Shown here piece by piece: positions 15,851 to 37,964 of a DNA stretch of 39,999 nucleotides. The notes beneath the pieces were generated by a model. It saw nothing but the letters and a program-made list of their open reading frames with translations. It was not told the origin of the DNA and did not search any database. The stretch comes from a virus. Taxonomy: Duplodnaviria > Caudoviricetes. The position numbers were made by a program, and so were the translations under genes. The stretch spans positions 1 to 39,999 of the IMG/VR virus record IMGVR_UViG_3300035182_000456; one strand, written 5' to 3'. Position 1 is the stretch's first letter. Every line of letters begins with the position of its first letter.

Positions 15851-15937
15851 TGGTGGATACCCAAGGAATCGAACCTCAAGGGTCAGTCTGACAGCAGATT
15901 TACAGTCTGCCCCCGCTCCATACGGGTCTACGCATCC
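15851..15937 (-). tRNA. tRNA-Tyr (GTA)
   Basis: Anticodon arm GCAGA-CTGTAAA-TCTGC, long variable arm, T-loop GGTTCGATTCC, encoded ACCA end; G7:G66 mismatch. Confidence 0.85.
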
Positions 15938-15945
15938 ATTTTGTG

Positions 15946-16233
15946 TCATATCCCTATCATAGCCTTAATTACCGCCAAAAAACCAGATTGAGAAGCCACG
16001 ACAATAATGCCTACCACCCACATTGCCGTGCGTGCTTGCGTGACAAACGTCCGTATTTGGTCAGCCAATTCCGATATTTTGTGCTCCGATTGACTGCCTG
16101 CAAGCTCTAAGCGGGTTAACGCCTCGCCGTGACGGTCTAATCGTGACTCTGCTTTGATAACGCGCTCTTTGATGTCGTCCATTTGTTGCTCTGTTAGCAT
16201 GACATACCTCATTAAATAGATGTATGTCATCAT
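15946..16233 (-). CDS. Coiled-coil protein with C-terminal TM segment (XhlA/holin-like)
   Basis: Heptad N-terminus and hydrophobic AMWVVGIIVVA; in the lysis region. True start probably near MLTEQ. Confidence 0.6.
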   Translation of the reverse strand: MMTYIYLMRYVMLTEQQMDDIKERVIKAESRLDRHGEALTRLELAGSQSEHKISELADQIRTFVTQARTAMWVVGIIVVASQSGFLAVIKAMIGI

Positions 16234-16554
16234 ATTAGCTGATTTAGTTCATGCCGAGCCGATAAATCTATGGTTGGTCTGCTAACTGCTGTTGGTCATC
16301 CCCAAGGAGTATTGTCAGACTCATCATCAGCCCCAACCCCGGCAGCAGATACCGCTCTACTGCCTGCCACGTCCAGCCATTGTCCCCGCTGGCGGGTGAT
16401 GCAAAAACTTACAGATGATGGCGCAAATGCCGCCACAAGCCAAACCAAGTAGAGCCATTGGCACGGGTTAGCAATATTGTGCCATTGTGGTAGCGCTGGA
16501 TGTGCATCTTAACAGACATATTAGCACGTTTTTTGCAACGCGCATTATCAGCCG

Positions 16555-17382
16555 TCATTGTTGCGCTCTACGCAAAAACGCCATGCCTAGACCGCCGATA
16601 ACCCACGATAACCCACTGATTGAGTAGTCGATAAATGGCAAGTGAGGCATACCAAAATTGTCGGACGCAATATCCAGCGCCCCCACGATGATAGCAATCG
16701 CTGCTGTGGTGTATGTGCCGTAGCCTTCGGGAACAAAGCGTGCAACCAGCTTGTAGATGCTGCTTTGCTCAACTTCGGCTTGAACATTGCTTGTGGCGGT
16801 CGGCTGCACTGGCTCATAGATAGGCATTGTCTCACCGTGGTTATCTGTGATGTATGTAACGGGTTTGTCCATTGATTCAGCCACCACTACACTGCTATCA
16901 GTGTATTGCCCTAGCCACATACCAACCTCTGTTTCGCGTCTAGTTTGCAATGCACGCAATACCCGACCACCTGCTTTGTCCCAGCGCCGCAATTGTGCAG
17001 GTACGCTGTCAAAGTCGCCTTCGTTAAGCAATTGTGCCAATGTTGACCGCTCAAGCGCCCCCTGCCCAACGTTAAACGTCCAGCTAACCAATGCGTCAAA
17101 CTGATGCTGGTTAAGTGGTTGCTTGATTACGCGGCTTACTGCATCCTCGGCAACACCCAAATCATCAACTAGGATGTCATGGATGGATTCATAGGACAAC
17201 GCCTGCTTGATGTCTATCACGCGCCCCCCCGATAGCTGGATAGCGCCGCTGGATAGCTCATCACGGGTGAGCAGATGACCAACACCAATGGTTGGTAATC
17301 CTCCTGCGTCGTTATAGATAACCGCTTTGCTACCCTCAAGCTGCATAATCATCCGCACGCCTAACGCTGATGTTTTGCTCAT
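16555..17382 (-). CDS. GH24 (T4-type) endolysin with C-terminal membrane extension
   Basis: E-x8-D-x5-T triad (LEGSKAVIYNDAGGLPTIGVGH), QFDALVSWTFNVG and RRETE; two hydrophobic segments at the C-terminus. Confidence 0.9.
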   Translation of the reverse strand: MSKTSALGVRMIMQLEGSKAVIYNDAGGLPTIGVGHLLTRDELSSGAIQLSGGRVIDIKQALSYESIHDILVDDLGVAEDAVSRVIKQPLNQHQFDALVSWTFNVGQGALERSTLAQLLNEGDFDSVPAQLRRWDKAGGRVLRALQTRRETEVGMWLGQYTDSSVVVAESMDKPVTYITDNHGETMPIYEPVQPTATSNVQAEVEQSSIYKLVARFVPEGYGTYTTAAIAIIVGALDIASDNFGMPHLPFIDYSISGLSWVIGGLGMAFLRRAQQ

Positions 17383-17451
17383 AAAAATCCCCATTTGTTA
17401 GATGGGGATAGTATTGATTGCTTTGGGGTTTTTATCAAGTGGGATTCGCCA

Positions 17452-23712: not shown

Positions 23713-23741
23713 ATTATCGTATAGTGTCGGGCGCTTGTCAA
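23713..23741 (-). promoter_or_regulatory. sigma70-like promoter with box (3)
   Basis: TTGACA-17-GATAAT; box at 23724-23734. Confidence 0.82.
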
Positions 23742-24565
23742 TGATTAAATGCCGCTGTAGCCTCATCAATTAACTGCTGCTGCTTGCCCATCGGCAATTG
23801 GTCAAATCCAGGATGATTTGCACGCAACATTGACGCTATGTCAATCGCTGGGGCATCTGCATAAGCCTCTTGTGTGGGCGCATCAGCCTCTACTGTGGGG
23901 GCGCTACCGTATTTGGCTATCAGCACACCACCAGCAAACAATGCCGCCGCTACAGCAGCTACAATCACTTTAACGTTGCTTTGCGGGGGCGCAACATCCG
24001 GCTGGCTGGCAACCATTGCCGCTGTCTTGCGTGCTAACTCTTGCCGCTGCTTTGCAAGATCGTGGGCTTTTTGAGCCGCTGCAAGTTTCCGCTGCTCATC
24101 ATATAACTCAGGGAATGCAGGCTTAACCACACTGGTTAGCATCGCCAACGCTGCATCGCGGGGCGCTTTGTGCTTTGCTGCCAAGTCCGCCCATACAAAG
24201 CCGTTACCCTCCTTAGCATCAACTACCCCGATCTGCACTAGCAAACCAAACGCATGATTAATTGCCCAATGCTGGCTAATCCCGTTGCAATTCTCTGACA
24301 CGTACTTGCCTAACTGCTTAGCATTCGCTGGCTTGCCGGGGGCAATCTGCTTGAGCATGATCATCAGTGCCGTTGTTTGTGTGCTTGGCTCAATGTCGTC
24401 CATATGCAAGCGTACAAACGCCGCCACCGAATCACGCACGTCTGGCTTGCTGATGTGGCTCTTAACCAACGCAGCGAGAACACGGCGATGTTTAAGCGCG
24501 TCCTCGGCTTGCTTTGTGCAGGTCTGCATTGCGCCTGCCAGTTGGTCGAATGGGTCAATTGTCAT
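23738..24565 (-). CDS. Hypothetical membrane-anchored protein
   Basis: Helical N-terminus, coiled coil, TM VIVAAVAAALFAGGVLIA; ACAACACGGAGAC leader. Confidence 0.7.
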   Translation of the reverse strand: MTIDPFDQLAGAMQTCTKQAEDALKHRRVLAALVKSHISKPDVRDSVAAFVRLHMDDIEPSTQTTALMIMLKQIAPGKPANAKQLGKYVSENCNGISQHWAINHAFGLLVQIGVVDAKEGNGFVWADLAAKHKAPRDAALAMLTSVVKPAFPELYDEQRKLAAAQKAHDLAKQRQELARKTAAMVASQPDVAPPQSNVKVIVAAVAAALFAGGVLIAKYGSAPTVEADAPTQEAYADAPAIDIASMLRANHPGFDQLPMGKQQQLIDEATAAFNH

Positions 24566-24624
24566 GGTAGTGTCTCCGTGTTGTGGGGTTAATGCCTGAT
24601 GAAAGGCACTGACCCATGATGTTG

Positions 24625-25362
24625 TTAAACCTTGTCGATAAGCTCTTTCAGATGCTCCCAGTCACGAACAACGCCAAACTGAACCATGCTTGTTAGCATC
24701 TTTTCCGCATCTGCACGGGCTGATAACTGATGCGCGTCTGCTTCGTTCCAGCGATTCACGCCTTTTTCCTTTGTAGGCAAACCAAGGCGTGATGCCAGCG
24801 CATTGGCAGCATGGACATACAGCCACTTGTTATCTTTCCCCACGCGGTCGGGCAACTGGTCAATAGCCATGTTGAACGGTTTGTAGCGGTCGCCTGATTC
24901 GTCACGGTTTTGCAAAAGTTTTCCTTCAACGAAGGTCTTATACACCTGATACTTAAAATCAGGGTTTAGGAATGTTGCAGCATCCAGCAGGATATACAGA
25001 TGCGCCCATGTACCGCCACCCTTGCCGCGCTTGGTTACGAACAATGAAGATGTTTTGGATAGGGATTCAGTCAAACGACCGTCATTTATAATACGCCGAT
25101 TCGGCGTATTTAAAATTTGATCACTTTCTTCATTTTTATAATCTGTGGATTCCACAGATTTAAACTCACGCTCTAACACAGCCACATATTCAGCTAATTC
25201 TGGTGAGCGCATCCAATGGTCAAGGTGTTTCGCTGGAAGCCCCTTCTCAATCCGGTATGCGTTGCCGCAATCCCAGAACTGGTTAAGGTTGCCCATCATG
25301 GTTTTGTGGTCGATGTTGAATACATTGTGACCGATGGTTACGGTCATACGTTGGTTTTGCAT
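24625..25362 (-). CDS. KilA-N domain protein
   Basis: NLN..W..GN..R and TKRGKGGGTWAHLYILLDAA..LNPDFK motifs. Own promoter TTGCAA-17-TATAAT at 25398-25426. Confidence 0.85.
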   Translation of the reverse strand: MQNQRMTVTIGHNVFNIDHKTMMGNLNQFWDCGNAYRIEKGLPAKHLDHWMRSPELAEYVAVLEREFKSVESTDYKNEESDQILNTPNRRIINDGRLTESLSKTSSLFVTKRGKGGGTWAHLYILLDAATFLNPDFKYQVYKTFVEGKLLQNRDESGDRYKPFNMAIDQLPDRVGKDNKWLYVHAANALASRLGLPTKEKGVNRWNEADAHQLSARADAEKMLTSMVQFGVVRDWEHLKELIDKV

Positions 25363-25426
25363 GTCTATCCCCGTTCGTTAATGGTTAGTGAGATTGCATT
25401 ATAGATAATGTTACCGCAGATTGCAA

Positions 25427-26689
25427 TCAAACAACCTCACGCCCCAACGTCCGATAGCCCAACACACGCGCTTTAGGGTAACTCTCAATACTGACTTGGT
25501 TGTTCTGATTGCCACCCAAAATTAGGACGTTATCCCCACTTTCCCCATAGTAATAGCCGACGTGACCGCGCCAATCGCCTTTACTGCCTCTCCACAACAC
25601 CACCACATCACCCTTGCGCGGGGTGGTAGTCGCCTTGCCCCAATCCAAAAATGACCTTGCATTGTCTCTACCCGTGCCAGTAATGCCAGCCTTGCGCAAT
25701 GTGCCATTAACAAATCCGGCACACCACGCATCTCCCACGGGGTCAAAGCCGACGATCTGGCGCAATTGCAGACGGTCATCACGCTCATGCAAGCCTAAAT
25801 ATCCCTTGGCAATCTCTACAGGGCTGCCAGCGTCAAACACGTCTGGTACGGCACTTTCACCAAGAGCCGCATACTCGGACGCATACGCGCCCCCTTTGTT
25901 GGTATTGCTCCCATGCAGGTAGTAATCAACCGCCGCGCCAATCCCTTGCAAGTGAGCCACAGCCACAAACCCCGCCGTTCGCTTTGGGTCATCGGCACGC
26001 AACACGCCACGGGCAAAGCCCTGATCAATGTTGAATTGTGCCAGCTTGACAAAGAAACCATCTTGTATGGACGGTGTGGACATAAAGCTGTCAAAGTTCA
26101 CGCCAGCCGTCCAGTGCTGGTTGTCTTGCAAAAATGCCAAATGCTTTGCCCCACAACTGCCGGATTTGACGCAATCAGGCGCATTGTCAAAGGCTTCGCG
26201 GTGAATGTAACCAGTTTGAGTAAGTGCAGCAGCCCCGCCCTGCCATGCGCCTATGTAGCCTTTTGTGTTCCAAATGGCGTAATTAGTGGATGATTCACGC
26301 TGCCGGATTTTGATCATCAACTCGGATGTCATGGCGTTGTTTAGACCGCGCAACTGTTGCCCCCATGCCATATTAGGCTTTGCGTACTGGATGGATGCTA
26401 ACCACGCGCCAACGGCTTCACCAGCGTATCGTGTGTAAGTGTAAGCGTCTTTGAGCGGGGCGCTTACAGGCGTTCCAGCGTCCTGCAGCGGGTTAAGTGT
26501 GGTGACAGTGATCAGCAGAGCAACGGGGGCGCTAAAGTACCAGGGAAGCATGGGACGTGTTGCGCCCCAAATTGCATCACTAGCGTTTTGCACGTTGTTT
26601 ACTACGCGGCTTAAATACTGTGTGCGTGCGTCTATCTGATCGACTTTGCGCTCAATCCTGCTTAATTGTGTTGTTGATAACTTAGCCAT
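25427..26689 (-). CDS. Membrane-anchored two-domain peptidoglycan hydrolase (lysozyme-like plus TIGR02594-type NlpC/P60-like)
   Basis: N-terminal hydrophobic segment; RESS.NY...GYIGAWQ; C-terminal AWCAGFV...GHVG...LGGNQ. Confidence 0.78.
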   Translation of the reverse strand: MAKLSTTQLSRIERKVDQIDARTQYLSRVVNNVQNASDAIWGATRPMLPWYFSAPVALLITVTTLNPLQDAGTPVSAPLKDAYTYTRYAGEAVGAWLASIQYAKPNMAWGQQLRGLNNAMTSELMIKIRQRESSTNYAIWNTKGYIGAWQGGAAALTQTGYIHREAFDNAPDCVKSGSCGAKHLAFLQDNQHWTAGVNFDSFMSTPSIQDGFFVKLAQFNIDQGFARGVLRADDPKRTAGFVAVAHLQGIGAAVDYYLHGSNTNKGGAYASEYAALGESAVPDVFDAGSPVEIAKGYLGLHERDDRLQLRQIVGFDPVGDAWCAGFVNGTLRKAGITGTGRDNARSFLDWGKATTTPRKGDVVVLWRGSKGDWRGHVGYYYGESGDNVLILGGNQNNQVSIESYPKARVLGYRTLGREVV

Positions 26690-26722
26690 TTCGATAAACC
26701 CATGTTGTGTTGTTGTGGGTCT

Positions 26723-26751
26723 ATGTTATCAAGTGTCGGGCGCATACACAA
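26723..26751 (-). promoter_or_regulatory. sigma70-like promoter with box (4)
   Basis: TTGTGT-17-TAACAT; box at 26733-26743; terminator at 26753-26773 upstream. Confidence 0.72.
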
Positions 26752-26884
26752 CAAAAAACCCGCCGTAGCGGGTAATTTATGAGCTAACATCCATTTCAAA
26801 TGTAGGTATTCTCTAAGCTGCCTATCCGGCAGTTAATTTTGATTTAGCCCGGATTTGAAATCCGTGCTGTTTCCAAGCTGCCTT

Positions 26885-27058
26885 TCACCAAAACAATCCC
26901 TTAATCTCATCAACTGCTTGCGTCCAGAACATGCTTAGCAAGTCCCCCGCCCACGTCGTGATCATGGGGAAAAAGAACGCTTGTGCCACAAAGATCACAA
27001 GCAACCAAATGGCGACGGGCTTTACAAAGTAGTGCGTGAGTGATTCAAACGCGTTCAT
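26885..27058 (-). CDS. Small membrane protein (57 aa, below the ORF-track cutoff)
   Basis: MNAFESLTHYFVKPVAIWLLVIFVAQAFFFPMITTWAGDLLSMFWTQAVDEIKGLFW; ATGA overlap with the upstream gene. Confidence 0.7.
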   Translation of the reverse strand: MNAFESLTHYFVKPVAIWLLVIFVAQAFFFPMITTWAGDLLSMFWTQAVDEIKGLFW

Positions 27059-27555
27059 TGTTTTGCCACCATGACCCCGCCAGCCGTGCAGTTGCGCCGT
27101 CCGGCATCAGTTCGCGCCCATTTCAGGCTTGTCTGACATTCTGCGGCTTCTTCAGCAGTCAGCCTGCGTACCATTACATAATTTTGCGCCTTTGGTTTTC
27201 CCGTGCCGTCTACTCTGATGTCGATCTTGCTTACCGCTTCAGACGTTGCCGCAAGCACCTTAAAAAATTGCCCCATGTTAATGCTTAGCATCCCGCCAAA
27301 CACCAACACAGACGCAAGCAAAAGGCTTGTAACGCCCCCGACTGTCTCGCGACTTGCTACCAGTGCTCCGCCGATCAGGACGGCACCGGCGCTAACTAAG
27401 CCGTTTGCAAACGCATTGTGCCCAACGCTCAAAATCTGGATGTTGCCGCCGCTGAACAAGCCAGACAACAGGCTAACACCGCCCAATACGCAACCAGCAA
27501 CGCCTACAAACGTGCTGGCATTTGCGCCGTAAAATCTTTCCCCGTACATGCTCAT
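27055..27555 (-). CDS. Gly-rich membrane protein (about 3 TM segments)
   Basis: Three hydrophobic segments; C-terminal Cys pair. Confidence 0.75.
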   Translation of the reverse strand: MSMYGERFYGANASTFVGVAGCVLGGVSLLSGLFSGGNIQILSVGHNAFANGLVSAGAVLIGGALVASRETVGGVTSLLLASVLVFGGMLSINMGQFFKVLAATSEAVSKIDIRVDGTGKPKAQNYVMVRRLTAEEAAECQTSLKWARTDAGRRNCTAGGVMVAKQ

Positions 27556-27588
27556 TTTATTAGTCCCGTGTTGTGTTGTTGAGCCTTA

Positions 27589-27617
27589 ATTCTATAATGT
27601 GTCGGGCGCTACTGCAA
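27589..27617 (-). promoter_or_regulatory. sigma70-like promoter with box (5)
   Basis: TTGCAG-17-TAGAAT; box at 27599-27609. Confidence 0.78.
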
Positions 27618-27897
27618 GCTGTTTTTTTAGCACGTCTGACTTGCGGTCAAGCGTCCAGTAACCAAACGCCTCCAAGCATTGTTGGTTGTAACAAGGCAAC
27701 TCTATGCCGCGATAGCTACCCGTGGGCAGCGTGCAATTGTCGGCAATCTGCGAATCATGCAAGCCCTCAACATGTACCGAACCCGTGTTGTTGCTCATCA
27801 TATAGACCGCAAAGAGCGCCCCCACAATGCCGCCGTAAAACCATGCGCGGATATATGCCCCGATCAATCCGCTAATTTCTCTGTGTATCATGCTCAT
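27592..27897 (-). CDS. Small bitopic membrane protein
   Basis: AGGAG SD; TM WFYGGIVGALFAVYM. Confidence 0.65.
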   Translation of the reverse strand: MSMIHREISGLIGAYIRAWFYGGIVGALFAVYMMSNNTGSVHVEGLHDSQIADNCTLPTGSYRGIELPCYNQQCLEAFGYWTLDRKSDVLKKQLAVAPDTL

Positions 27898-28091
27898 TTA
27901 AATTGCTCCTATTTCGTTAAGTTTCGTGTGACGTTTCTATTTCAGGTGTGTGACTAATCTCATTTTTTCGATGAGTCACACTATTTTGCATGGTTGCCTT
28001 CCTAAAAAATAGTGTGACCAATCAGAAAACGCTAATATACGCCATTTGTTTATTGGTTGCGCTTGATCGACGCAACCAATAACAGGCTGAT

Positions 28092-28544
28092 TTAGCGGCT
28101 TGGCGGCGCTGGTAGTTGCATCCAGTGCGTTACTTCACCATCTACCATCCAGTTCTCGTAATTGTCATTTACGCACCAGCGCTTGCCTGCATACATGGCA
28201 CGGATGACAAAGGGCTTACTGATGCCGTCGTTAACCACTGCAAGCACCGCTACGCCTGATTCTGGCAAGGTTTCCGCCGTATTCCAGCCGCTCCACGTCA
28301 CATTGCCGTAACTGTCAATATGACCACGCTTGTCATTGCAAACAAAGCCGTAGCCATCAATGATCGCGCCGTCATTGTCGTGCAAGTCTTGCCATTTGCG
28401 GTTTGACACGGGCAATTTCAGGGATAAAGAGTGCAAGCGTTCCGCCGCTTCGTCCAGCACGGCATTAACCACGCCGTCATCTGTCTCAATGTCACGCGCC
28501 AGCACACGCAACGCGCTAATAAGTGTTTGTGTGTTTGATTTCAT
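28092..28544 (-). CDS. DUF551-like phage protein
   Basis: W..AETLPE...VLA and VTHWMQLPAPP motifs. Confidence 0.75.
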   Translation of the reverse strand: MKSNTQTLISALRVLARDIETDDGVVNAVLDEAAERLHSLSLKLPVSNRKWQDLHDNDGAIIDGYGFVCNDKRGHIDSYGNVTWSGWNTAETLPESGVAVLAVVNDGISKPFVIRAMYAGKRWCVNDNYENWMVDGEVTHWMQLPAPPSR

Positions 28545-28580
28545 TTCGTCTAATCCTATTTAACGTCTACTAAATACACA

Positions 28581-28811
28581 TTAACAATAGTGGTTAATGC
28601 ACTGGGGGCGTATCCGAGCATTTGCCCGTTTTCGCCAATTCCGATAACCCCAAAATGGCTGTTTTTGGGCATTTTCGGGTTTGCCTGACTTCTGCCTGCC
28701 TTCTGCCTGCCCACCCGCGCTTTGTGCCTGCACTTTGGATGACAACTTTAAGCGACAAACACAAGCGCGTTTTGCACCTGATTTATTGATTGTCTGCATT
28801 ACGCCACTCAT
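28581..28811 (-). CDS. Possible small hypothetical protein
   Basis: ATGA overlap with the upstream gene, but composition is atypical and repeat-derived. Confidence 0.35.
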   Translation of the reverse strand: MSGVMQTINKSGAKRACVCRLKLSSKVQAQSAGGQAEGRQKSGKPENAQKQPFWGYRNWRKRANARIRPQCINHYC

Positions 28812-29761
28812 TTTACGATACTCAAAATAGCAGCGCTTTTTTGTTTGACTGGTTTAATACTGTCAATCGCACGCTTTGCACCCATCTTACACGCGCTTGT
28901 TCCACACGTTTTTGTAGCAGCACGGGTTTTGACGGATGCCTTGCCGCATACCGGACAATTAAAATTAGCGCTTACTGGTAATTGCATTATTTTCTTTACA
29001 TCAATTGCAATGTCGTTTTGTGAATTACGCTTTACATCGTATATTAGCGTTTCCTGATTGGTCACAGACTGGTCACAGATGGGTAACATGTGACTATGTG
29101 ACTCTTCTGTATCTTTTGTGTGACCAGTCTCAGTCACACGGTAAAAACCAAACAAATGGAGTAACATATAAATTACTGGTATTACGCCCACAGTAATAGC
29201 AGTCTTAAACAGCCAAGGCTTATTTATTGCCATGCGCTCCACGGGGGGCGAAACCGTAAACGCGGGGGGCATGGTGGCGCTTGCATCTAGCTTGGCAAGG
29301 TCGTTTTGCAAGCGTTCGAGATCAACACGACGGCTTGTCATCTTGTCTGTGTCGACAATCTCTTGGATTTGTGTCTTGATGACATTGCGTTGATCGTCTC
29401 GGTTTGCAGAGTCATGCGCCCATGATTTAACCATGGCAGCATGGTCGGCTTGTGCCTGCTGGTACGTCGCAAGCTCTGATGTGTATGCCGGGTCTTTGAT
29501 GTCGCCTTCGTGTTGATACATCAAATAACCTTCCAATGGTGAAAGGATTAGGCAGGCAGTTATTGCTAGCAATCGGACAAGCCAACCTGCACGGGGTGCG
29601 AATACGTGACCCCAGCCAATCCAGACCGCCGCCGCAAGCCCTAACGCCACAGACCAACCAAGTGCAGTGGACTCATAGCCTAATCCATCGTGCGTGTGCA
29701 TGACAGTTGCTGCTATAAATGGCAGTGCTATCAGGTGTGCTGTGTTGGTCAATTTTCTCAT
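28808..29761 (-). CDS. Multi-TM coiled-coil protein with C-terminal Cys4 Zn-finger-like domain
   Basis: Start MRKLT after the leader; 3 TM, coiled coil, 4th TM, then CPVCG...TCGTSAC. Confidence 0.75.
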   Translation of the reverse strand: MRKLTNTAHLIALPFIAATVMHTHDGLGYESTALGWSVALGLAAAVWIGWGHVFAPRAGWLVRLLAITACLILSPLEGYLMYQHEGDIKDPAYTSELATYQQAQADHAAMVKSWAHDSANRDDQRNVIKTQIQEIVDTDKMTSRRVDLERLQNDLAKLDASATMPPAFTVSPPVERMAINKPWLFKTAITVGVIPVIYMLLHLFGFYRVTETGHTKDTEESHSHMLPICDQSVTNQETLIYDVKRNSQNDIAIDVKKIMQLPVSANFNCPVCGKASVKTRAATKTCGTSACKMGAKRAIDSIKPVKQKSAAILSIVK

Positions 29762-29788
29762 TTTGTTGTCTCCGTGTTGTTGTCCGAC

Positions 29789-29817
29789 AGTATAGTGCAA
29801 GTGTCGGGCGATAACAA
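29789..29817 (-). promoter_or_regulatory. sigma70-like promoter with box variant (6)
   Basis: TTGTTA-17-TATACT; GTGTCGGGCGA at 29801-29811. Confidence 0.78.
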
Positions 29818-29820
29818 GGC

Positions 29821-29851
29821 GCAAAAAAGCCACCGGGTTAGGGTGGCTCTT
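29821..29851 (-). terminator. Intrinsic terminator (near-identical copy at ~31181-31210, variant at ~32145-32173)
   Basis: AAAAAGCCACC-gggttag-GGTGGCT hairpin. Confidence 0.8.
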
Positions 29852-29880
29852 GGTGTGCTTAGGTTTTGGATATTGGGTGG

Positions 29881-30555
29881 CTACCGTCCTAACAATGGCA
29901 CTTGCTTCACCTTGCTTTTTAACTCTGGCAACTTGTGCAGCAAATACGTCTTGTCACCTCGCTTCAAGGCTTCACAAACTGACGGTGCGCTAAACATGCC
30001 AGACAAACGAAAAAGAGACATTCTGAATTCATCATCTGACCATATATAGCCCCAGCCTGTTGAGAACTTATTTGAGTACCAGACTCTGAATGAAAGCCGC
30101 AACTGAGAAAGCGATGGCTTATTGTCGGTCATACGGAAATAAGGACTCTCATCATACAGATAACCACGATCAACAAGCTCTTCCCACCAATCAACAATAC
30201 CCGGCAACAAACCAAGATTGATTAGCTTAGCCGCGTAATGGTCGTTACCGATCACGGCTTGTTTGGTTTCGAGTTCTTGCCAGCGGTCAATAATGCGCAT
30301 CAGCAAGGCGACGTTAAGGTGTGCTGCAACTGAAATGGATTGGCGTTTGTCGAGTTGGTAGGTTTTGATGTACTCAGTTTTTCCTTTACCTGAAATTATT
30401 GGGCACTCAATTTTTGTAACCAAACCGAACGCAGGGTCTTTCGCCAATGACTCCACAGTACGCATTGCATTGTTGTGCCGAACATCCAACATATCGGTGA
30501 TTTCTTTCAGTGTCATGCTGGTTACTGTTGCAGACATTGTTGCTAAGTCGTTCAT
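29881..30555 (-). CDS. Rha-like (antirepressor-type) DNA-binding protein
   Basis: MTLKEITDML..RHNNAMRTVE, Y.LDKRQS and IIDRWQELE motifs. Start uncertain (30555 or 30564). Confidence 0.75.
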   Translation of the reverse strand: MNDLATMSATVTSMTLKEITDMLDVRHNNAMRTVESLAKDPAFGLVTKIECPIISGKGKTEYIKTYQLDKRQSISVAAHLNVALLMRIIDRWQELETKQAVIGNDHYAAKLINLGLLPGIVDWWEELVDRGYLYDESPYFRMTDNKPSLSQLRLSFRVWYSNKFSTGWGYIWSDDEFRMSLFRLSGMFSAPSVCEALKRGDKTYLLHKLPELKSKVKQVPLLGR

Positions 30556-30574
30556 TTCATTCATCCTTTCAGGC

Positions 30575-30675
30575 ATAAAAAAACCCGTGAAAACCAAAGG
30601 AGCAAGCAATGGTCGTCACGGGTTGGGCTTTTGCCCTTACGATTAATGCCTTGCTCGCACGATTCGTAAGGGATG
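30575..30675 (-). ncRNA. Structured two-hairpin RNA/leader, c4-antisense-like
   Basis: Stems CCCTTACGA/TCGTAAGGG and AACCCGTGA/TCACGGGTT plus U-tract; the loops are complementary (GAGCAAG/CTTGCTC); TATAAT upstream. Confidence 0.5.
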
Positions 30676-30867
30676 TGAGGATTATAGCCTGTGATGTGGA
30701 AAAACGCCAGACAAACGCACTGAACTCACACAATCGCCCACAAGCCTCGCAACACCATACCCGCCACTACCGTACCGCTAACAACGCGCGAACGCCGCAT
30801 AGACAACCACAGTGAGTATATGGAGGAGTTTAACCATGTTGGGGTGTGTGTTGGGTTGGTATGGCTT

Positions 30868-31160
30868 AAAGTAGTAGGATGGTAGTAAGTAGTAGTAGGA
30901 TGGTAGTAAGATGATGTTACTACCTTTTTCTTTATTAAAATCATATAGTTAAGCACTGGTAGTAAGAGTAGTAAGATATATTTTTAAAATAAGTATGTGA
31001 GATTAAGTATATATCTACACACACACACACAATTGCATATATATATATAAGGATGCGATCTTACTACTCTTACTACCGCCGCCAAGAAGCATACTATTTT
31101 GTCTTTGGTTTCAGCATGTTACAGGCTAATTTCTCGGTAGTAGGATGTTACTACCTTTTT
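30868..31160. other. Probable replication origin
   Basis: Many GGTAGTA(A/G)G iteron-like units; perfect 20-bp inverted repeat at 30958-30977 and 31058-31077 around an AT-rich (CA)n/(TA)n core; non-coding; near the helicase. Confidence 0.7.
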
Positions 31161-31230
31161 GGTTGATTCATCCCCAAAACGCAAAAAGCCACCGGGTTAG
31201 GGTGGCTCTTGCATGGTTTGAGTGGCTTTT

Positions 31231-31935
31231 TCAGTGAATCGGGATTGGCATCATGTAAGCCCTGACTGCTGAACCGTTAATTTTAACGCTCTTTGACGTG
31301 TACCCGCATTTCTTCAGGGCAATTCCAACGGCTCGAACTACTTTTGCGTCTGGTTTGTCGTATCCAAGTTTAACAGCTACCTGAGTAGTAGCCATAGGGT
31401 TTTTCAACAAAAACAACTGGTTATCATAGTTACTACGAAAACCGAACATAGCTAAGACCTGCTTTTCATGGTCAGTTTGCAATCTAAATTCCGGCTCATA
31501 CTGACCAAATGCCGATTCAAGTTGACGCAAAATAGCGGTTTCTTTTTCAATGTTCCTGCGCAATCCTTCAATAGCCAGTGAAGCGTGCTGATTAGGCGTA
31601 AGTCGTTGATCTTCTTTGGAGTAATTGCCTGTTTTGCGTATTGCTGGAAGAACTTCACCAGTAACCCACTTGCGAAACCGCTTTGCTTCAGGCTTGTCTG
31701 ATCTGATGATTACGGCATACAAGCCAGATTCGTTGATAATAGTGGATTCTCCTTGACGACCTAAGTTCAGCTTAGCCCGTTCATCTTCATCAAGGCGGCT
31801 TGCTACCATTGATGGGTTGCTCAATTCCAAAACATCGCACACATCAGCAAGTACAAACCATGGGTTTCCTGCTTCGTCTGTGATCGTGCGCAATTGGTTA
31901 GTGTTTCCGAAGTTGAATGTTGTCAATGCGTTCAT
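31231..31935 (-). CDS. Bro-N domain protein fused to a copy of the helicase C-terminal domain
   Basis: PWFVLADVC, INESGLY and AKRFRKWVTGEVLPAIRKTG motifs; the last ~55 aa match ORF 32193. Confidence 0.9.
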   Translation of the reverse strand: MNALTTFNFGNTNQLRTITDEAGNPWFVLADVCDVLELSNPSMVASRLDEDERAKLNLGRQGESTIINESGLYAVIIRSDKPEAKRFRKWVTGEVLPAIRKTGNYSKEDQRLTPNQHASLAIEGLRRNIEKETAILRQLESAFGQYEPEFRLQTDHEKQVLAMFGFRSNYDNQLFLLKNPMATTQVAVKLGYDKPDAKVVRAVGIALKKCGYTSKSVKINGSAVRAYMMPIPIH

Positions 31936-32078
31936 GGTTGTGTCTCCTTAAGTTTTCCGAGTAGATGTGTAATTTGAGAATTGAAAGAGCGGTGTTCTTC
32001 CTTTGCCTTGGCTTTCACCCATTCAGTTATTTCTGTAGGTAGCCTTAAAGGGTAGGGTGTTGCTTGCTTTGTCTTCAT
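31932..32078 (-). CDS. Arc-like ribbon-helix-helix repressor
   Basis: YPLRLP.EI.EWVK.KA..EHRSFNSQI; AAGGAG SD; arc-ant gene order. Confidence 0.85.
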   Translation of the reverse strand: MKTKQATPYPLRLPTEITEWVKAKAKEEHRSFNSQITHLLGKLKETQP

Positions 32079-32192
32079 GGTTGTGTCTCCTTGATGTGTT
32101 AAATAGAGTCTAAACTTAATCTTCAATGAATGCACTAGCCAAACGCAAAAAGCCACCCCGAAGGATGGCTCTTGCATAATTGGTGTGGCTTG

Positions 32193-33743
32193 TCAGTGAA
32201 TCGGGATGGGCATCATGTAAGCCTTAATGGGCGTGCCATTGATCTTTACGCTCTTTGTTGTGTAACCGCATTTCTTGAGTGCAGTACCAACAGAACGAAC
32301 GACCTTAGGGTCTGGTTTGTCGTATCCCAATTTACCCGCAATCATGGTTGTGGTCATCGGGTCACGCCGTCCGCCGTCATCTGCGTGCTTACCGAACATG
32401 GTTAAGATCGCCTCTTCAAACGGGTCGATAACTTCCATTGCCTTGTTGTGGTAGTTAAGGTCTGCCAGTTCCTCAGATGTCAAGCTATGGTCGGTGTAAT
32501 CAGCCATTGCTTTGATCTCTGCCCAATACTGTTGCATGTCCAAGGTGTTGTATTCAATGCACGTAACTGGGATAGACCACCAGCGACGGTTTCCAGTGTG
32601 GTCAATCAGGTATTTGTCATCGTTGACACTAGCGCAATACGCAGTACGCCGTCTGTAGTCCATAGAGGTCTTTGCATAAGGCATCCGGTACGTATCCACG
32701 TCTTTGGTAATAAATGCCTTGAGCGTCGGTATATCGCGCTTAAACGTTCCGTCCAACTCACCCAGCTCTGCAATCCATGCCGATGTCGCAGCCCTCACGC
32801 TGTCAGGGTTGCTAGGGTGTAGCTCCAAGCCATCAGCAACAGAGCCGCGCAATGGGCATAAGGATTTAATCCAAGTTGTTTTTCCCTTTCCCTGATCGCC
32901 AACCAACACAATTACGCCCTGCTGTGGTGGTGGCGTATCCAGCGTTGCAGCTTTGATTGCGCCCACGCTCCACCGCATCAGTAGGGTACGTTTAAGGTCT
33001 GCTGGCATGTCAGATACAAGCGTATCCGCCAACGCATCAATCCTGCTCACGCCATCCCACACAACAACGTCAAGCCACTCAGCCACTGGGTGATATTTAT
33101 TGTCGCTGGTGATAACTTGCAGGTGGTCAATCATCTCATTGGATTTGTACCCTACAGAACGCGCCCCCGAAATGATGCGTAACACCATATTGCCTATTTG
33201 ATCATCGTCAAACGCCCCCCCGGTATATTCCTCTTTGCGGGTCATGAGGTTAAGGCGTGCCTCAATCTGCATTGCTTTAAGGATTGCCGCTGTATTGCTG
33301 ATGGTGCTAAGCGGCTTGCCATCCTCATCCATGTTTACCCACTTATGGTCATCAAGTACGCCCTCTGCAACTTTGCCGGGTGCTGCACGGTCTGTACCTG
33401 AGGTGCGTTTTGCTGCTGCTGCTGCTTTGTCAAAAACGCGCTTAACGCTGCTGCGCCCACCGCCTGCTTTACGCTCTTTTGTGATAGCGTCGATCAAGCC
33501 ACTGGTTACAGTGTCGCCTACTCCGAGCCTTGCGCTATGTTTTGCAACGTCCGAGATAATGCGGTCGGCTTTATCCGCTTCGTTGGTAACGTCGATTGCA
33601 TCAACCATTGCATATAGCAATTTGTTTGCTTTCCCTTGTATTGCCGGGTCTTTATAAGCCCTATGATCTATATCTTGTATCTGTAGCAGTATATTTTGGT
33701 ATTTTCCGTCAACATGTAGTTGACTAGTCTCATTGTGTGTCAT
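32193..33743 (-). CDS. VapE/VirE-like P-loop replicative helicase
   Basis: YHPV..WL..WDG..RI, GDQGKGKT, ELGEL, YRMPY and YLIDHTGNRRWW motifs. Confidence 0.88.
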   Translation of the reverse strand: MTHNETSQLHVDGKYQNILLQIQDIDHRAYKDPAIQGKANKLLYAMVDAIDVTNEADKADRIISDVAKHSARLGVGDTVTSGLIDAITKERKAGGGRSSVKRVFDKAAAAAKRTSGTDRAAPGKVAEGVLDDHKWVNMDEDGKPLSTISNTAAILKAMQIEARLNLMTRKEEYTGGAFDDDQIGNMVLRIISGARSVGYKSNEMIDHLQVITSDNKYHPVAEWLDVVVWDGVSRIDALADTLVSDMPADLKRTLLMRWSVGAIKAATLDTPPPQQGVIVLVGDQGKGKTTWIKSLCPLRGSVADGLELHPSNPDSVRAATSAWIAELGELDGTFKRDIPTLKAFITKDVDTYRMPYAKTSMDYRRRTAYCASVNDDKYLIDHTGNRRWWSIPVTCIEYNTLDMQQYWAEIKAMADYTDHSLTSEELADLNYHNKAMEVIDPFEEAILTMFGKHADDGGRRDPMTTTMIAGKLGYDKPDPKVVRSVGTALKKCGYTTKSVKINGTPIKAYMMPIPIH

Positions 33744-33818
33744 AGTATTGTCTCCGTTGTGTAGTATTTACGAAAGCCCCTTAAGCCTGCCACCGCTCCC
33801 ACGGTCGCGGGCTTTTCT

Positions 33819-34001
33819 TTATGCGCGATTATCAGCGTTTTTGCAAGCGTCGATGTACTGACTTATCGCGTCTATCACCAATGTTGCTTTGTTGTAACCA
33901 TCCTTTGCCATCATCGCCTCTAGCGCCGCGTCCAGCTCCAACGGCAAGCGGAATGAAAATTTGCGTGTTACTTTGTTAAACGTGTTGGATTTTTTGCTCA
34001 T
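33819..34001 (-). CDS. Small ribbon-helix-helix protein (CopG/Arc-like)
   Basis: FSFRLPLELDAALE...KATLVIDAISQYI; AAGGAG SD. Confidence 0.78.
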   Translation of the reverse strand: MSKKSNTFNKVTRKFSFRLPLELDAALEAMMAKDGYNKATLVIDAISQYIDACKNADNRA

Positions 34002-34026
34002 GGTCGTGTCTCCTTGTGATTAAGAC

Positions 34027-34059
34027 TTGCATGTTATAGTGTCGGGCGCTATGATGCAA
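34027..34059. promoter_or_regulatory. Overlapping divergent promoters sharing one box (7)
   Basis: + strand: TTGCAT-17-TATGAT. - strand: TTGCAT-17-TAACAT. Box at 34039-34049. Confidence 0.82.
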
Positions 34060-34088
34060 GCTCAACAACACAACACGGGGACAACAAA

Positions 34089-34940
34089 ATGACAAAACAC
34101 ATAATTGCATACAGCGGCGGTCACAGTAGCGCACTGGTGGCGGTTGAAGTGTGCCGCAAGTTTGGCAAGGATAAAGTGGTATTACTTAATCACAACATCA
34201 GCCCAAAAGTTGAGCCAGCGGATGTTAAGCGGTTCAAGGCGGAAATAGCTGATTATCTTGGACTGCCGATCACATACGCAAATCACCCTGACTGGGAAAC
34301 TGAGACACCCATCAGCCTGTGCGTAAAGGCTGGTACATGGGTAAATCCAGCCAATCGGCAAATACTTTGCACAAACAGACTCAAAACAGCGCCATTTTAC
34401 AATTGGTTATCCGCTAATTATCGCGAAGGCGACGTTTGCTACTATGGATTTGACAAAAACGAGCCGGAAAGGATTACGCGCCGATCTAACATCATGGGGC
34501 AATCAGGTTATAAAACAGATTATCCGTTGGCTTTGTGGCGTGATCGCACTATCTACACAACTAATGAGATTGGCATAGCGCACCCGCTCTCATACGATGT
34601 TTTTAAGCACGCTAATTGTATTGGATGTATTAAGGCTGGATGGCAACACTGGTACGTAATCTATTGCCTTTATCCTGAGATTTACAAGCAGTTAATAGAT
34701 GGCGAGGAAGAGATAGGTCATTCTGTTCATGGTCTTGATTTTGCTGCTGACAAGTCAGAAATGTTTGAGCAAATGCAAAAAGCTGGCATTGTTCCAACCG
34801 AAAAAACACCCAGCGGCGAATTTTGGGCAACGGCAAAGAGAGAATTAGCACGACTCGAACAACAGAAAACACAATTTAGCTTGTTTGATATGCCTACGTT
34901 TGAAAAATCAGTCGAATGTACGGGAGATTGCAAGCTATGA
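34089..34940 (+). CDS. PAPS-reductase-like (PP-loop/HUP) protein
   Basis: AYSGGHSS, CT.RLK, GFD..E..R and HANCIGCIK motifs. Confidence 0.75.
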   Translation: MTKHIIAYSGGHSSALVAVEVCRKFGKDKVVLLNHNISPKVEPADVKRFKAEIADYLGLPITYANHPDWETETPISLCVKAGTWVNPANRQILCTNRLKTAPFYNWLSANYREGDVCYYGFDKNEPERITRRSNIMGQSGYKTDYPLALWRDRTIYTTNEIGIAHPLSYDVFKHANCIGCIKAGWQHWYVIYCLYPEIYKQLIDGEEEIGHSVHGLDFAADKSEMFEQMQKAGIVPTEKTPSGEFWATAKRELARLEQQKTQFSLFDMPTFEKSVECTGDCKL

Positions 34941-35866
34941 GCGACTTCCTAACAAAAATGCTTGCCGCAATCGGTAGCGCCCCCACGTCGCTGGTATGCG
35001 ACACAAAAACGCACCGATTCAGCACCAATGGCAAAAGCATGGACAAAGCAGGTTGGTACATCCACCCATCCACAGACGTGGTTATAGCGGGTTGCTGGCG
35101 CTCTGGTGTCACTGTCACGCTGTTTGCTGGCGGCGTTACCAAAGATGACCCTGAGGCGATTGCAGCTATCCACCGGGCGCGTGCTGCTTATCGCGAGGAA
35201 CGTGCTGCTGCTGCACAAGAAGCGGCTGCCAAAGCCAGTGACCTACTAACATGGTCAAAGCGTCTCGATCTTAACCATGAGTACATCAAGCGCAAAGCCA
35301 TTGACGGAATGTCGATAGCATCACGATTACGCTCACGCTCCCTAAAATCGTCCGTGCTGCTAGATATGGTTAATGCTTATGGTGAGATAGTGGGGGCGCA
35401 AACAATCGCGACCGACGGCGTTAAACGCTTTGTAGCTGGCACATCAAAGCAGGGTGCGTGGCACTGGCTGTTAAATCCAACCAAAGATCGTATTGACGAT
35501 ATTATCGGAGTGGTTGAGGGATGGGCAACGGGTTGCGCGGTAGCAGAGATCCACGGATTAAGCCGAGTTGCTGTGGCGTTTGACGCAGGAAACCTTGAAC
35601 ATGTAGTAGCTCGGCTGCTTATCCTGTATCCGCACAATCCTATTGTGATCTTTGCCGATGACGATGACATTAACCCAAAGACGGGCAAGCGTGCTGGCAA
35701 AGCTGGTGCTGAAAAGGCGCGTTCAATTGAACCTGATCGTGTTGGTATTCAGTACCCGCTCTGGTTAGATGGAAAAAAGCCAGTGGGTTGCAGTGATTAT
35801 GCTGATTTGTACTTGCTAAAGTGTCGGGCGCTTGATATTATAAACACTCAAACAACACAAGGGTAA
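34937..35866 (+). CDS. Toprim-domain primase (P4-alpha/TraC-like N-terminus, no helicase)
   Basis: HRF...GWY, Y..RK, Q.I..DG.KRF, VEGWAT, AFDAGNL, ADDD and SDYAD motifs; ATGA-coupled start. Confidence 0.88.
   Translation: MSDFLTKMLAAIGSAPTSLVCDTKTHRFSTNGKSMDKAGWYIHPSTDVVIAGCWRSGVTVTLFAGGVTKDDPEAIAAIHRARAAYREERAAAAQEAAAKASDLLTWSKRLDLNHEYIKRKAIDGMSIASRLRSRSLKSSVLLDMVNAYGEIVGAQTIATDGVKRFVAGTSKQGAWHWLLNPTKDRIDDIIGVVEGWATGCAVAEIHGLSRVAVAFDAGNLEHVVARLLILYPHNPIVIFADDDDINPKTGKRAGKAGAEKARSIEPDRVGIQYPLWLDGKKPVGCSDYADLYLLKCRALDIINTQTTQG
35813..35841 (+). promoter_or_regulatory. sigma70-like promoter with box (8)
   Basis: TTGCTA-17-TATTAT; box at 35821-35831, inside the primase 3' end. Confidence 0.72.
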
Positions 35867-35871
35867 TTTAG

Positions 35872-36402
35872 ATGGCTATCGAGATCAAAAACCTGCAAGG
35901 CGACGTTATTTTTACGTTATGCGCAAATGACCTGCTCGGTGCAAACCTGCAAGGCACAAACCTGCGCAGTGCAGACCTGAACAGTGCAGACCTGCGCTAT
36001 GCAGACCTGCGAGGCGCAAACATGCGCTATGCAGACCTGCGAGGCGCAAAACTTAGCGGTGCAAACCTGATAGGTACAAACCTTAGCGGTGCAGACCTTG
36101 GCTGTGCAGACCTTGGCGGTGCAAACCTGCAAGGCACAAACCTGCGCAGTGCAAACCTGAGAGGCGCAGACCTGCGAGGTTCAGACGTTTTAAGTGTAGC
36201 GGCAAGCGATGCAACAAATGATTATGATATTTTTGCTACAAAGACACACTTGAAAATCGGATGTCAGTTCCACCCATGGGGTGATTGGATGGGTTTTGAT
36301 GATGAAGCAATAATCAAAATGGATGGTGATGAAGCACTTAAATTCTGGCGCGTGTGGAAACCAATCCTGCGAGCTATCGCAACTGATCGCGGGTGGTTAT
36401 AA
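35872..36402 (+). CDS. Pentapeptide repeat protein
   Basis: About 16 A(D/N)Lxx repeats; C-terminal IGCQFH..W domain. Confidence 0.92.
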   Translation: MAIEIKNLQGDVIFTLCANDLLGANLQGTNLRSADLNSADLRYADLRGANMRYADLRGAKLSGANLIGTNLSGADLGCADLGGANLQGTNLRSANLRGADLRGSDVLSVAASDATNDYDIFATKTHLKIGCQFHPWGDWMGFDDEAIIKMDGDEALKFWRVWKPILRAIATDRGWL

Positions 36403-36405
36403 ATC

Positions 36406-37674
36406 ATGGATATTTTATCAAAAACCGGGGAATTATTTCCCCGCTCACCGATCACCCAACTTACAGTTGGCATAACAGCTACATTAGGCGTAATGCTTAA
36501 CTACCCTGAATTGAGCTTAGGTGTTGTAGGGATGGCAATGGCAGGTCGTGCGCTGCTGAATTACCGCAACAATGACCAAACAGAGGATAGCCAAACAACT
36601 ATGGTTAATCCTGTGGTTGCATCTGATGATATTGGCTTGGTAAAAACCATCGCTGATTACGGCTTTGATGGCGCTACGCTTGTTGCAAGTCATGACGGCA
36701 TGGTTATCAACCGCTATACCGTGCGATTGCCCCACGGGTCACGCATTAAGGATTTGCCTGATGCTGATGACTTGGCAATGGCTCTAGGCGTTGCGTCGGT
36801 AGATATTCTGCCAAGCCGTCAAAAAATGTGCCGTGAGTTTGACGTGCCGCGCATTGACCGCCAGTATGTCGACTTTGACAGTCTTATGCAGTCAAGCGAG
36901 TGGGCGCAAGCCAAGGATTCAAGCATGGCGTTGCCTGTATGCCCTGCTGTAACCATTGACGGCAAGCCCTACGTCATTGATCTAAAGGATGGTGTGCATT
37001 ACTTCATCCCCGGAACAACTGGCGCGGGTAAATCGGTTTTTGCAAATGCGCTGATGCTGTCACTGATTGATTCTGGTCGTGACTTCACGCTATTGGTTGC
37101 AGACGGCAAAAGCCGCAAGGGTGATTTTTACCCGTACTACAGCAAATCCGAGTACCTGCTGAATGATTACCGCGACCATGTGCAAGGAGAGCCACAGTGC
37201 AAGGGCGCTGCTATCGAACCCGAAGATATGGCAGCGCAGTTTGAATGGTTAGTCTGGACAATGGAACAGCGTTTTAGTGGTGGCTCTGATGATATGAAGC
37301 CGATCATTTACTTGATGGACGAAATGAAAGACGTGGTAGATATGCTTTCGGCAAGTGACGATAAAAACGCGCTGAAATCCTTCACCCGCAACGTAGGAAG
37401 GCTGGCGCAAAAAGCACGCTCCGTTAACATCACCATCCTGTTTTGCACCCAAAGCCCAAATAGTGAGTGGTTGCCACAGACGTTACGCGCCGTTATCCCG
37501 TCCGTGTTTGCGTTTGCCGTTAGCAGTGCAGCACAAAGCCGGGTATGTATCGGTGAAAACGGCTGTGAGAAGCTGCTAGGCAAAGGCGATGGATATGCAA
37601 AGATCAACGGCAAAACCACGCGCATTCATGGCGCTAACGTAACAATTGACCATATTGGAAGGTATTTAAAATGA
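36406..37674 (+). CDS. FtsK/SpoIIIE-family ATPase with N-terminal TM hairpin, lacking the gamma domain
   Basis: GTTGAGKS, MEQR, MDE, RLAQKARS..I...TQSP, SRVCIG..G.EKLLGKGD; ends right after the motor domain. Confidence 0.9.
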   Translation: MDILSKTGELFPRSPITQLTVGITATLGVMLNYPELSLGVVGMAMAGRALLNYRNNDQTEDSQTTMVNPVVASDDIGLVKTIADYGFDGATLVASHDGMVINRYTVRLPHGSRIKDLPDADDLAMALGVASVDILPSRQKMCREFDVPRIDRQYVDFDSLMQSSEWAQAKDSSMALPVCPAVTIDGKPYVIDLKDGVHYFIPGTTGAGKSVFANALMLSLIDSGRDFTLLVADGKSRKGDFYPYYSKSEYLLNDYRDHVQGEPQCKGAAIEPEDMAAQFEWLVWTMEQRFSGGSDDMKPIIYLMDEMKDVVDMLSASDDKNALKSFTRNVGRLAQKARSVNITILFCTQSPNSEWLPQTLRAVIPSVFAFAVSSAAQSRVCIGENGCEKLLGKGDGYAKINGKTTRIHGANVTIDHIGRYLK

Positions 37675-37964
37675 AACTGCTACCCATCGCCATAATCGCC
37701 ATACTCTCCACACCAGTCCATGCCGATTGGTTTGTAGATGGCACGATCACGCGTAACCTAGACGATAATACTGATCTTATTGAGGTGCATCCAGATGGTA
37801 GCCGTCATCTCTATAGAGGCAACGGCACGCTGTTTGCTGGCTACAAGTGGCGTTTTGACCATTCCGCACTATCTTTGGGGGCGTATCACCAGTCTAACCC
37901 GTACCGTGGTGACGATTACGGGCAGAATGGGGTAGCGGTTCGTGGGTGCTTTGGGGATTGCTAA
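37671..37964 (+). CDS. Small exported beta-strand protein
   Basis: Signal peptide MKLLPIAIIAILSTPVHA; aromatic beta-strands; HQSN...DYGQN. Confidence 0.7.
   Translation: MKLLPIAIIAILSTPVHADWFVDGTITRNLDDNTDLIEVHPDGSRHLYRGNGTLFAGYKWRFDHSALSLGAYHQSNPYRGDDYGQNGVAVRGCFGDC

Follow-up and report, generated by a model that had tools for sequence, protein, structure and literature searches.

In the window (the whole stretch of DNA analysed here, a 39,999-base myovirus contig from IMG/VR record IMGVR_UViG_3300035182_000456), six genes, which we call A to F, are identified by their sequences as the phage's version of a cassette that also occurs on plasmids and integrated elements in the Thiothrix family. 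We suggest, with a probability of roughly 0.6, that the cassette pumps double-stranded DNA through septa, from cell to cell along a filament. The module itself is real, conserved and host-linked, as seen in its gene content and order, its carriers, its intact motor motifs, purifying selection and the host link. A sequence-only reading of this DNA had grouped eight open reading frames (ORFs) into a putative phage-encoded module for DNA transfer or envelope remodelling. An ORF check of the window located all eight; six of them belong to the cassette, while 37671 and 27592 fall outside it. The module is indeed carried by a phage, but it is not phage-specific, being common to plasmids and integrated elements. 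The six genes, with ratios of non-synonymous to synonymous substitution rates (dN/dS), are:

28808..29761, minus strand: gene A, multi-pass membrane protein with a coiled coil and a C-terminal C4 zinc ribbon; dN/dS 0.08
27055..27555, minus strand: gene B, three hydrophobic segments and a small C-terminal domain; dN/dS 0.07–0.10
26885..27058, minus strand: gene C, 57-residue membrane peptide with one hydrophobic segment (2.43)
25427..26689, minus strand: gene D, membrane-anchored wall hydrolase, lysozyme-like domain plus TIGR02594/CHAP peptidase; dN/dS 0.03–0.08
23738..24565, minus strand: gene E, predicted winged helix (about residues 58–128), coiled coil and membrane segment 198–216; dN/dS 0.08–0.11
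36406..37674, plus strand: gene F, 422-residue FtsK-type ATPase with a short hydrophobic N-terminus and without gamma domain; dN/dS 0.06

Reading 34 regions of host-family genomes, we found a contiguous unit of A, B, a peptidase or small membrane gene, D, E and an ATPase gene, with some rearrangements. The gene E profile, built from the same 23 loci that it finds, located the cassette in 18 of the family's 107 genomes, at 23 loci in all (11 of 28 genomes in the genus of G510); the gene D profile had matches in 20 of the 107. D lies within 4 kb of E at all 23 loci, and A and B are each near E at 16. An ATPase gene follows E directly at 22 loci (18 of FtsK type, 4 of another type), the last locus ending at a contig edge, and the gap between the two is −52 to +5 bases in 21 of the 22. 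In the phage, A-B-C-D-E remain in this order, interrupted by insertions, and F is displaced by 12 kb. Where the phage has gene C, other copies have a membrane-anchored M23 or CHAP peptidase; since three unrelated families (CHAP, M23 or M15) occupy the peptidase slot, wall cutting is a conserved property of the cassette.

The carriers differ from one another in all other content. They include plasmid-type contigs with Rep3, ParA and resolvase genes (G465 C3, G464), elements with tyrosine integrase, AlpA and primase or Rep genes (e.g. in G495, G465, G487, G494, G511 and G493), two sites beside TraI/TraD genes (G484, G490) and a prophage-like region (G493 C29) with terminase and lysozyme genes 12–13 kb away. 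The set of integrase, AlpA and primase, accompanied twice by a small-terminase-like gene, resembles phage satellites. Capsid, sheath, tube and portal proteins had no match in the 34 regions; therefore the cassette is not a virion or lysis module, and the phage has separate lysis genes (a lysozyme and an XhlA-like small protein, a holin candidate, at 15946–17394, apart from the six genes). No VirB4, VirB6, VirB8 or pilin family was detected among 178 Pfam-scanned proteins (90 and 88 hand-picked from 412 ORFs, plus some phage proteins), and the cassette had no outer-membrane component among the scanned element proteins. The scanned proteins of the small carriers included no relaxase family; only TraI_2 and TraD of the element beside one cassette copy were found.

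Scans of virus contigs for relatives returned sister phages only, and among isolated phages and PLSDB plasmids F, D and A had no close relatives. Metagenomic relatives comprised 31 proteins at 46–97% identity and one at 39% for F, and 16 at 38–85% for A. Eleven contig sizes recur between the lists for F, A and D (at most 15 members shown per cluster); taking equal size to mean the same contig, all three genes have relatives on contigs of 35,545 and 48,705 bases, F and A on one of 22,145 bases, F and D on contigs of 22,560, 7,257 and 6,015 bases, and A and D on contigs of 10,370, 9,586, 10,852, 6,158 and 6,319 bases. The 35.5 and 48.7 kb contigs belong to a lineage with 38–39% identity in A. 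Co-occurrence, a check that the sequence-only reading had proposed, is thus seen both in the contiguous host-family loci and on shared metagenomic contigs.

Values of dN/dS between 0.03 and 0.11 for A, B, D, E and F indicate purifying selection (phage core genes, 0.04–0.17). In a quick tree with long-branch warnings, the phage FtsK falls into a 22-row clade with element FtsKs, apart from chromosomal FtsK (Shimodaira-Hasegawa-like approximate likelihood-ratio support of 99). As had been predicted, F is an FtsK-type ATPase (FtsK_SpoIIIE PF01580, 48.6 bits against a cut-off of 24) that lacks the gamma domain (no PF09397 match); its alignments stop within about 15 residues of the motor end. The predicted membrane anchor is seen as a hydrophobic N-terminus, but a moderate one (19-residue peak 1.27); a double hydrophobic stretch is present there in all five family members plotted. 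The Walker A and Walker B residues are invariant in 25 aligned relatives, and G203, T205, G208, K209, D305 and E306 in 30 alignment rows. Among solved structures F best matches chromosomal FtsK (E-value 1e-76); it also matches a PDB 'DNA translocase coupling protein' (3.5e-34) and, with far weaker E-values, EccC/YukB. Alignment scans of genome and metagenome contigs with F gave ordinary FtsKs among the matches listed.

Gene E has one hydrophobic segment (peak 2.45). Foldseek returned nothing at E-value ≤0.001 for its product, the top rows being of MarR type, and the profiles of E and D found no informative match among PDB sequences. With its predicted winged helix, and encoded directly before the ATPase in the host-borne copies, it is the likely DNA-recognition partner of the motor, standing in for the missing gamma domain. 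That role had earlier been proposed for 28808, which we retain as a second candidate. The complex prediction for F and E scored 0.00, which speaks neither for nor against their pairing.

The product of gene D proved to be the anchored two-domain wall hydrolase that had been proposed: it has a hydrophobic segment near residues 50–68 (peak 1.48), a middle domain matching a tail-lysozyme PHROG (E-value 5e-11) with invariant E132, and a TIGR02594 domain (84.5 bits, cut-off 70.55) whose AWC and GHVG motifs (Cys, His) are visible in the alignment. The TIGR02594/CHAP domain is absent from some relatives of D.

For 28808, the most likely start was corrected to 29761 (317 residues) and three hydrophobic segments were called. 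Its C-terminus is a four-cysteine ribbon; the element A proteins have a helix-turn-helix-like tail at this place. Its profile had only two weak matches in the 107 genomes; the link to the first cassette gene comes from iteration, an independent profile match (P0360, E-value 3.7e-5) and HHalign comparison with element family A (96.6%, E-value 5e-10, 166 columns). The structure model is poor (predicted local distance difference test 65, predicted template modelling score, pTM, 0.33) and had no viral fold match at E-value ≤0.001. Four of the five further membrane proteins that had been listed (23738, 26885, 27055 and 28808) have clear segments; 27592 is borderline. Three phage genes accompany the cassette genes:

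37671..37964, plus strand: 97-residue exported protein with outer-membrane beta-barrel-like features; phage-only; dN/dS 0.11
27592..27897, minus strand: small protein with one borderline hydrophobic segment (1.41); phage-only and faster evolving, dN/dS 0.26–0.61
24625..25362, minus strand: KilA-N regulator, between D and E in the phage

The proposed coupling of 37671 to FtsK is supported by a 4-base overlap with the FtsK stop, and a hydrophobic segment lies at its start. The 34 host-family regions contained no relatives of 37671 or 27592. Atlas feature scores of 0.93–0.94 connect 37671 to Ail/Lom, opacity and phage outer-membrane protein clusters (131–140 shared features), which we treat as a lead only. 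The protein, which is under purifying selection, is too short for a full barrel and may be an oligomeric barrel or an exclusion factor. A PagL-like assignment, suggested by a motif, was dropped as unsupported, Atlas pointing to small outer-membrane barrels only.

The likely host, judged from relatives and spacers, is Thiothrix. Thiothrix names are the only organism names among the 24 near-full-length relatives of gene D, cluster lists add T. unzii, Ca. T. anitrata and T. lacustris, and none of 401 sampled Gammaproteobacteria had a full-length relative. The host family of 107 genomes was reached via G106, a genome with 92–94% matches to a named Thiothrix plasmid. A spacer of G508, one of 329 extracted, matches sister phage G001 at 31 of 32 positions with a CC flank, and G508 shares its genus with the main carriers of the cassette; the targeted gene is absent from the window, whose own best spacer match is 25 of 32. 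One sister phage has a different KilA-N-like gene, at which a host spacer is aimed. According to PMC9319827, Thiothrix grows in multicellular, sheathed filaments and releases gonidia from them; the filamentous host that the sequence-only reading had asked for is thus the probable one.

Within the cassette the phage carries a remnant of a clustered regularly interspaced short palindromic repeat (CRISPR) array:

26750..26897, minus strand: mini-CRISPR remnant between C and D, type I-F, with a terminator-like hairpin after two 32-base units

A near-perfect repeat at 26810–26837 is preceded, 60 bases upstream, by a degenerate one; it is identical at 25 of 28 positions to the array repeat of several family genomes and is presumably of type I-F. 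With this one intact repeat, two 32-base hairpin-like flanking units and no target found, the window copy may be a decayed array or a solitary-repeat anti-CRISPR RNA. In sister G003 the site between C and D carries two spacers and three complete repeats. One of these spacers matches the hydrolase gene of sister G004 at 32 of 32 positions with a CC flank; the hydrolase copy of G003 itself has one mismatch and has lost the flank. A spacer of sister G001 matches the integrated cassette-bearing element of G487 at 28 of 32 positions, again with a CC flank. The mini-arrays of G001 and G003 thus have host-type repeats, spacers matching mobile elements and no cas genes; in the sister records they lie at L171:857-1065 and L170:4869-4960. 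Virus-borne mini-arrays are reported to serve conflict between viruses (PMC6858448), a use with which the sister arrays agree. As far as they are described there, those arrays also have one or two spacers, no cas genes and close relatives as targets. The phage array differs from them in its type (I-F), its bacterial host, its location inside the cassette and its targets, the cassette's own hydrolase gene in a sister phage and an integrated element.

From these parts we infer a septal location, a channel, DNA binding and transfer. The septum of Gram-negative filaments consists of inner membrane, wall and inner membrane, an arrangement we did not find in print for Thiothrix. In the predicted mechanism, a local opening in the septal wall would be cut by the anchored transglycosylase together with a peptidase (D, the slot holding CHAP, M23 or M15). 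A, B and C would form the lining of a channel through both inner membranes. Gene E's winged helix would keep element DNA at the membrane, taking the place of the missing gamma domain, and the FtsK ring (F) would drive the DNA across. Septal passage is suggested because the cassette, which non-lytic plasmids, integrated elements and phages all retain, brings together a motor for DNA, a membrane-tethered fold predicted to bind DNA, proteins of the inner membrane and two activities that cut the wall, with no outer-membrane part. Any element entering one cell of a sheathed filament gains by reaching the others; the phage would seed neighbouring cells before lysis. The wider proposal, that the phage spreads its naked genome along a Gram-negative filament by a capsid-free route, using a borrowed family-wide cassette that also serves plasmids and satellite-like elements and is fought over with mini-CRISPR arrays, has in our view about even odds.

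Four other explanations were weighed against septal transfer. The cassette might serve segregation only, as a private SpoIIIE/FtsK-like device for stable carriage: at division it would bring phage or element DNA past the septum, while this is closing, into daughters and gonidia, and would not act at finished cross-walls. The close match of F to chromosomal FtsK, the lack of a phage integrase and a membrane-anchored winged helix suited to tethering would all fit, but the two wall-cutting activities, retained at almost every locus, would not be needed at an open septum, carriers that are integrated segregate along with the chromosome, and one plasmid-type carrier already has ParA; we regard this explanation as unlikely, if the best of the four. 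Relaxase-free conjugation between touching filaments or gonidia, with host parts crossing the outer membranes, comes next, at slightly longer odds. It would agree with the presence of the cassette on plasmids and integrative elements, with the possible outer-membrane protein 37671 next to the phage FtsK and with the account in PMC4447253 that TraB alone suffices for intermycelial transfer in Streptomyces. Yet outer-membrane, pilus, VirB4 and VirB6 families were absent among the scanned element proteins, 37671 is missing from the elements, and the filaments are sheathed (PMC9319827).

A different envelope role (superinfection exclusion, a division block, ESX-like protein export, or a loosening of septa so that the filament lyses or breaks up) is also doubtful and stands a shade lower. 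Membrane proteins and wall hydrolases suit it, the ATPase also matches EccC/YukB, if much more weakly, and the mini-array points to conflict between co-infecting elements; however, at 22 of 23 loci the ATPase gene immediately follows a gene with a predicted DNA-binding fold, the cassette is retained by plasmids and integrated elements, which are non-lytic, and the ATPase has a single domain, with no WXG100-type family among the scanned proteins. That the genes are leftover cargo from a host element, without joint function in the phage, is very improbable. The FtsK gene does stand apart, and the KilA-N gene, the mini-array and 27592 are interleaved; this reading is largely refuted by selection as strong as in phage core genes and by long co-inheritance, A, D and F being together on the 35.5 and 48.7 kb contigs of the divergent lineage.

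The nearest known parallel to the proposed septal transfer is the spreading of Streptomyces plasmids through the mycelium by TraB and Spd membrane proteins without a type IV secretion system (T4SS); in pSVH1 the set is TraB, SpdB2, Spd79 and SpdB3, and pore formation and binding of DNA and peptidoglycan are reported for SpdB2 (PMC4447253). The same source notes SpdB2 homologues on some actinophages and suggests that they may help phage DNA to spread. As far as that system is described there, it and the cassette both have an FtsK-like motor, small as well as multi-pass membrane proteins encoded by several translationally coupled genes, and a coiled-coil membrane protein of four-helix type; both lack T4SS and relaxase, have a filamentous host and are carried by plasmids and integrative elements. 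Unlike the Streptomyces system, the cassette has a Gram-negative host and a transglycosylase and peptidase as core parts, and F has no C-terminal recognition domain, the separate membrane-anchored winged-helix protein E adjoining the motor instead. Repeats like clt were not identified (the repeat search covered the window).

By sequence the cassette is not a member of the TraB or SpdB2 families. F scored 29.6 bits against the TraB model NF041214 (cut-off 800), and neither 28808 nor the scanned element A proteins matched DUF2637, which we take to be the family of SpdB2. An Atlas comparison of 28808 with a DUF2637 structure row stayed under the bar (template modelling scores 0.31/0.41, on a model of pTM 0.30); the multi-pass membrane architecture of 28808, with coiled coil, resembles that of SpdB2. 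F shares the alpha-beta motor with Walker A/B of chromosomal FtsK/SpoIIIE and differs in lacking the four-helix N-domain (PF13491), the linker and gamma (PF09397); the host's own FtsK has 849 residues and falls into a separate clade. Gram-positive T4SSs such as those of pCW3 (TcpA/TcpG) and Tn916 reportedly combine an FtsK-like coupling protein with a two-domain wall hydrolase. The cassette likewise has an FtsK-like ATPase and a lysozyme-plus-peptidase hydrolase; unlike those systems, VirB4, VirB6 and relaxase families were not found in it or in the small carriers.

How mobile DNA that has entered one cell goes on to colonise a multicellular bacterium has been worked out for Streptomyces plasmids alone. 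For Streptomyces, phage passage through cross-walls has been proposed, and we found no demonstration in the open-access literature searched; that literature on Thiothrix phages, on FtsK/TraB in such hosts and on septal phage spread also gave no description of the cassette. If septal transfer is true, the cassette would be an independent assembly in a Gram-negative filament, one in which the motor's DNA reader has become a separate membrane protein. The question can be tested, since there are Thiothrix strains in culture and small carriers of plasmid type. Thiothrix causes sludge bulking, and a phage running along filaments would bear on its control by phages.

The cassette genes had been described as lying mostly under box promoters. 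The 10-base box has exactly eight copies in the window, all on the minus strand (19519, 21743, 23733, 26742, 27608, 29810, 34048 and 35830), and three of them do precede cassette genes:

29801..29810, minus strand: box upstream of gene A
27599..27608, minus strand: box upstream of genes B and C
26733..26742, minus strand: box upstream of gene D

Because the box also precedes Sak, a helicase and two other genes, and is missing before the FtsK operon, it is a general promoter-like element and not a mark of the module. Most of the eight boxes are followed by a shared leader motif ending in a ribosome-binding site; the box at 35830 points antisense into the primase gene. The operon whose last part holds FtsK is headed by a gene resembling 3'-phosphoadenosine-5'-phosphosulfate reductase (34089–34940, plus strand).

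Several other FtsK-type proteins were seen in the host family. In some cassette copies (L239:16905-18350, L288:6867-8312, L245:16839-18284) the ATPase combines an FtsK-type hydrophobic N-terminus with a HerA/DUF87-like motor, a motor swap behind the same anchor. In a podovirus-like prophage region (L273-L274, G487 C5 near 194 kb), an FtsK of the phage clade with extra membrane segments has as neighbours an SNase-domain protein and a multi-pass membrane protein; this may be a second version of the module. FtsK proteins of 495–504 residues in five family genomes (L281, L282, L283, L285, L286) occur without the cassette and were set aside, as was one of 629 residues; two of the former, when scanned, were fused to an N-terminal DndE-like domain.

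The full phage genome is about 43 kb, and the roughly 3.5 kb absent from the window are baseplate and tail genes, read from four sister records with about 89% DNA identity to the window over the compared region. The capsid protein is 60–63% identical to those of Aeromonas phages 56 and 4_D05. Four DNA data sets listed as containing it are sediment or mat metagenomes, one of them possibly the source of the window; no RNA data set was listed. As had been noted for this DNA, an integrase is lacking: none of the five phage records (the window and four sisters) has a tyrosine integrase. The tape-measure proteins of the window (2372–4030) and a sister (L002:9430-11103) share the N-terminus and differ in their C-terminal lysozyme-type domains. 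A tRNA-Tyr gene (15851–15937, minus strand) lies beside the lysis genes. Five Rha, KilA-N or Bro-N regulators occur in this one 40 kb phage (11240, 17473, 24625, 29881 and 31231). The AT-rich, non-coding region 30800–31130, which adjoins Bro-N and VapE primase-helicase genes, has TACTAC-type repeats in both orientations and 8-mers in three to four copies; these repeats may be a replication origin.

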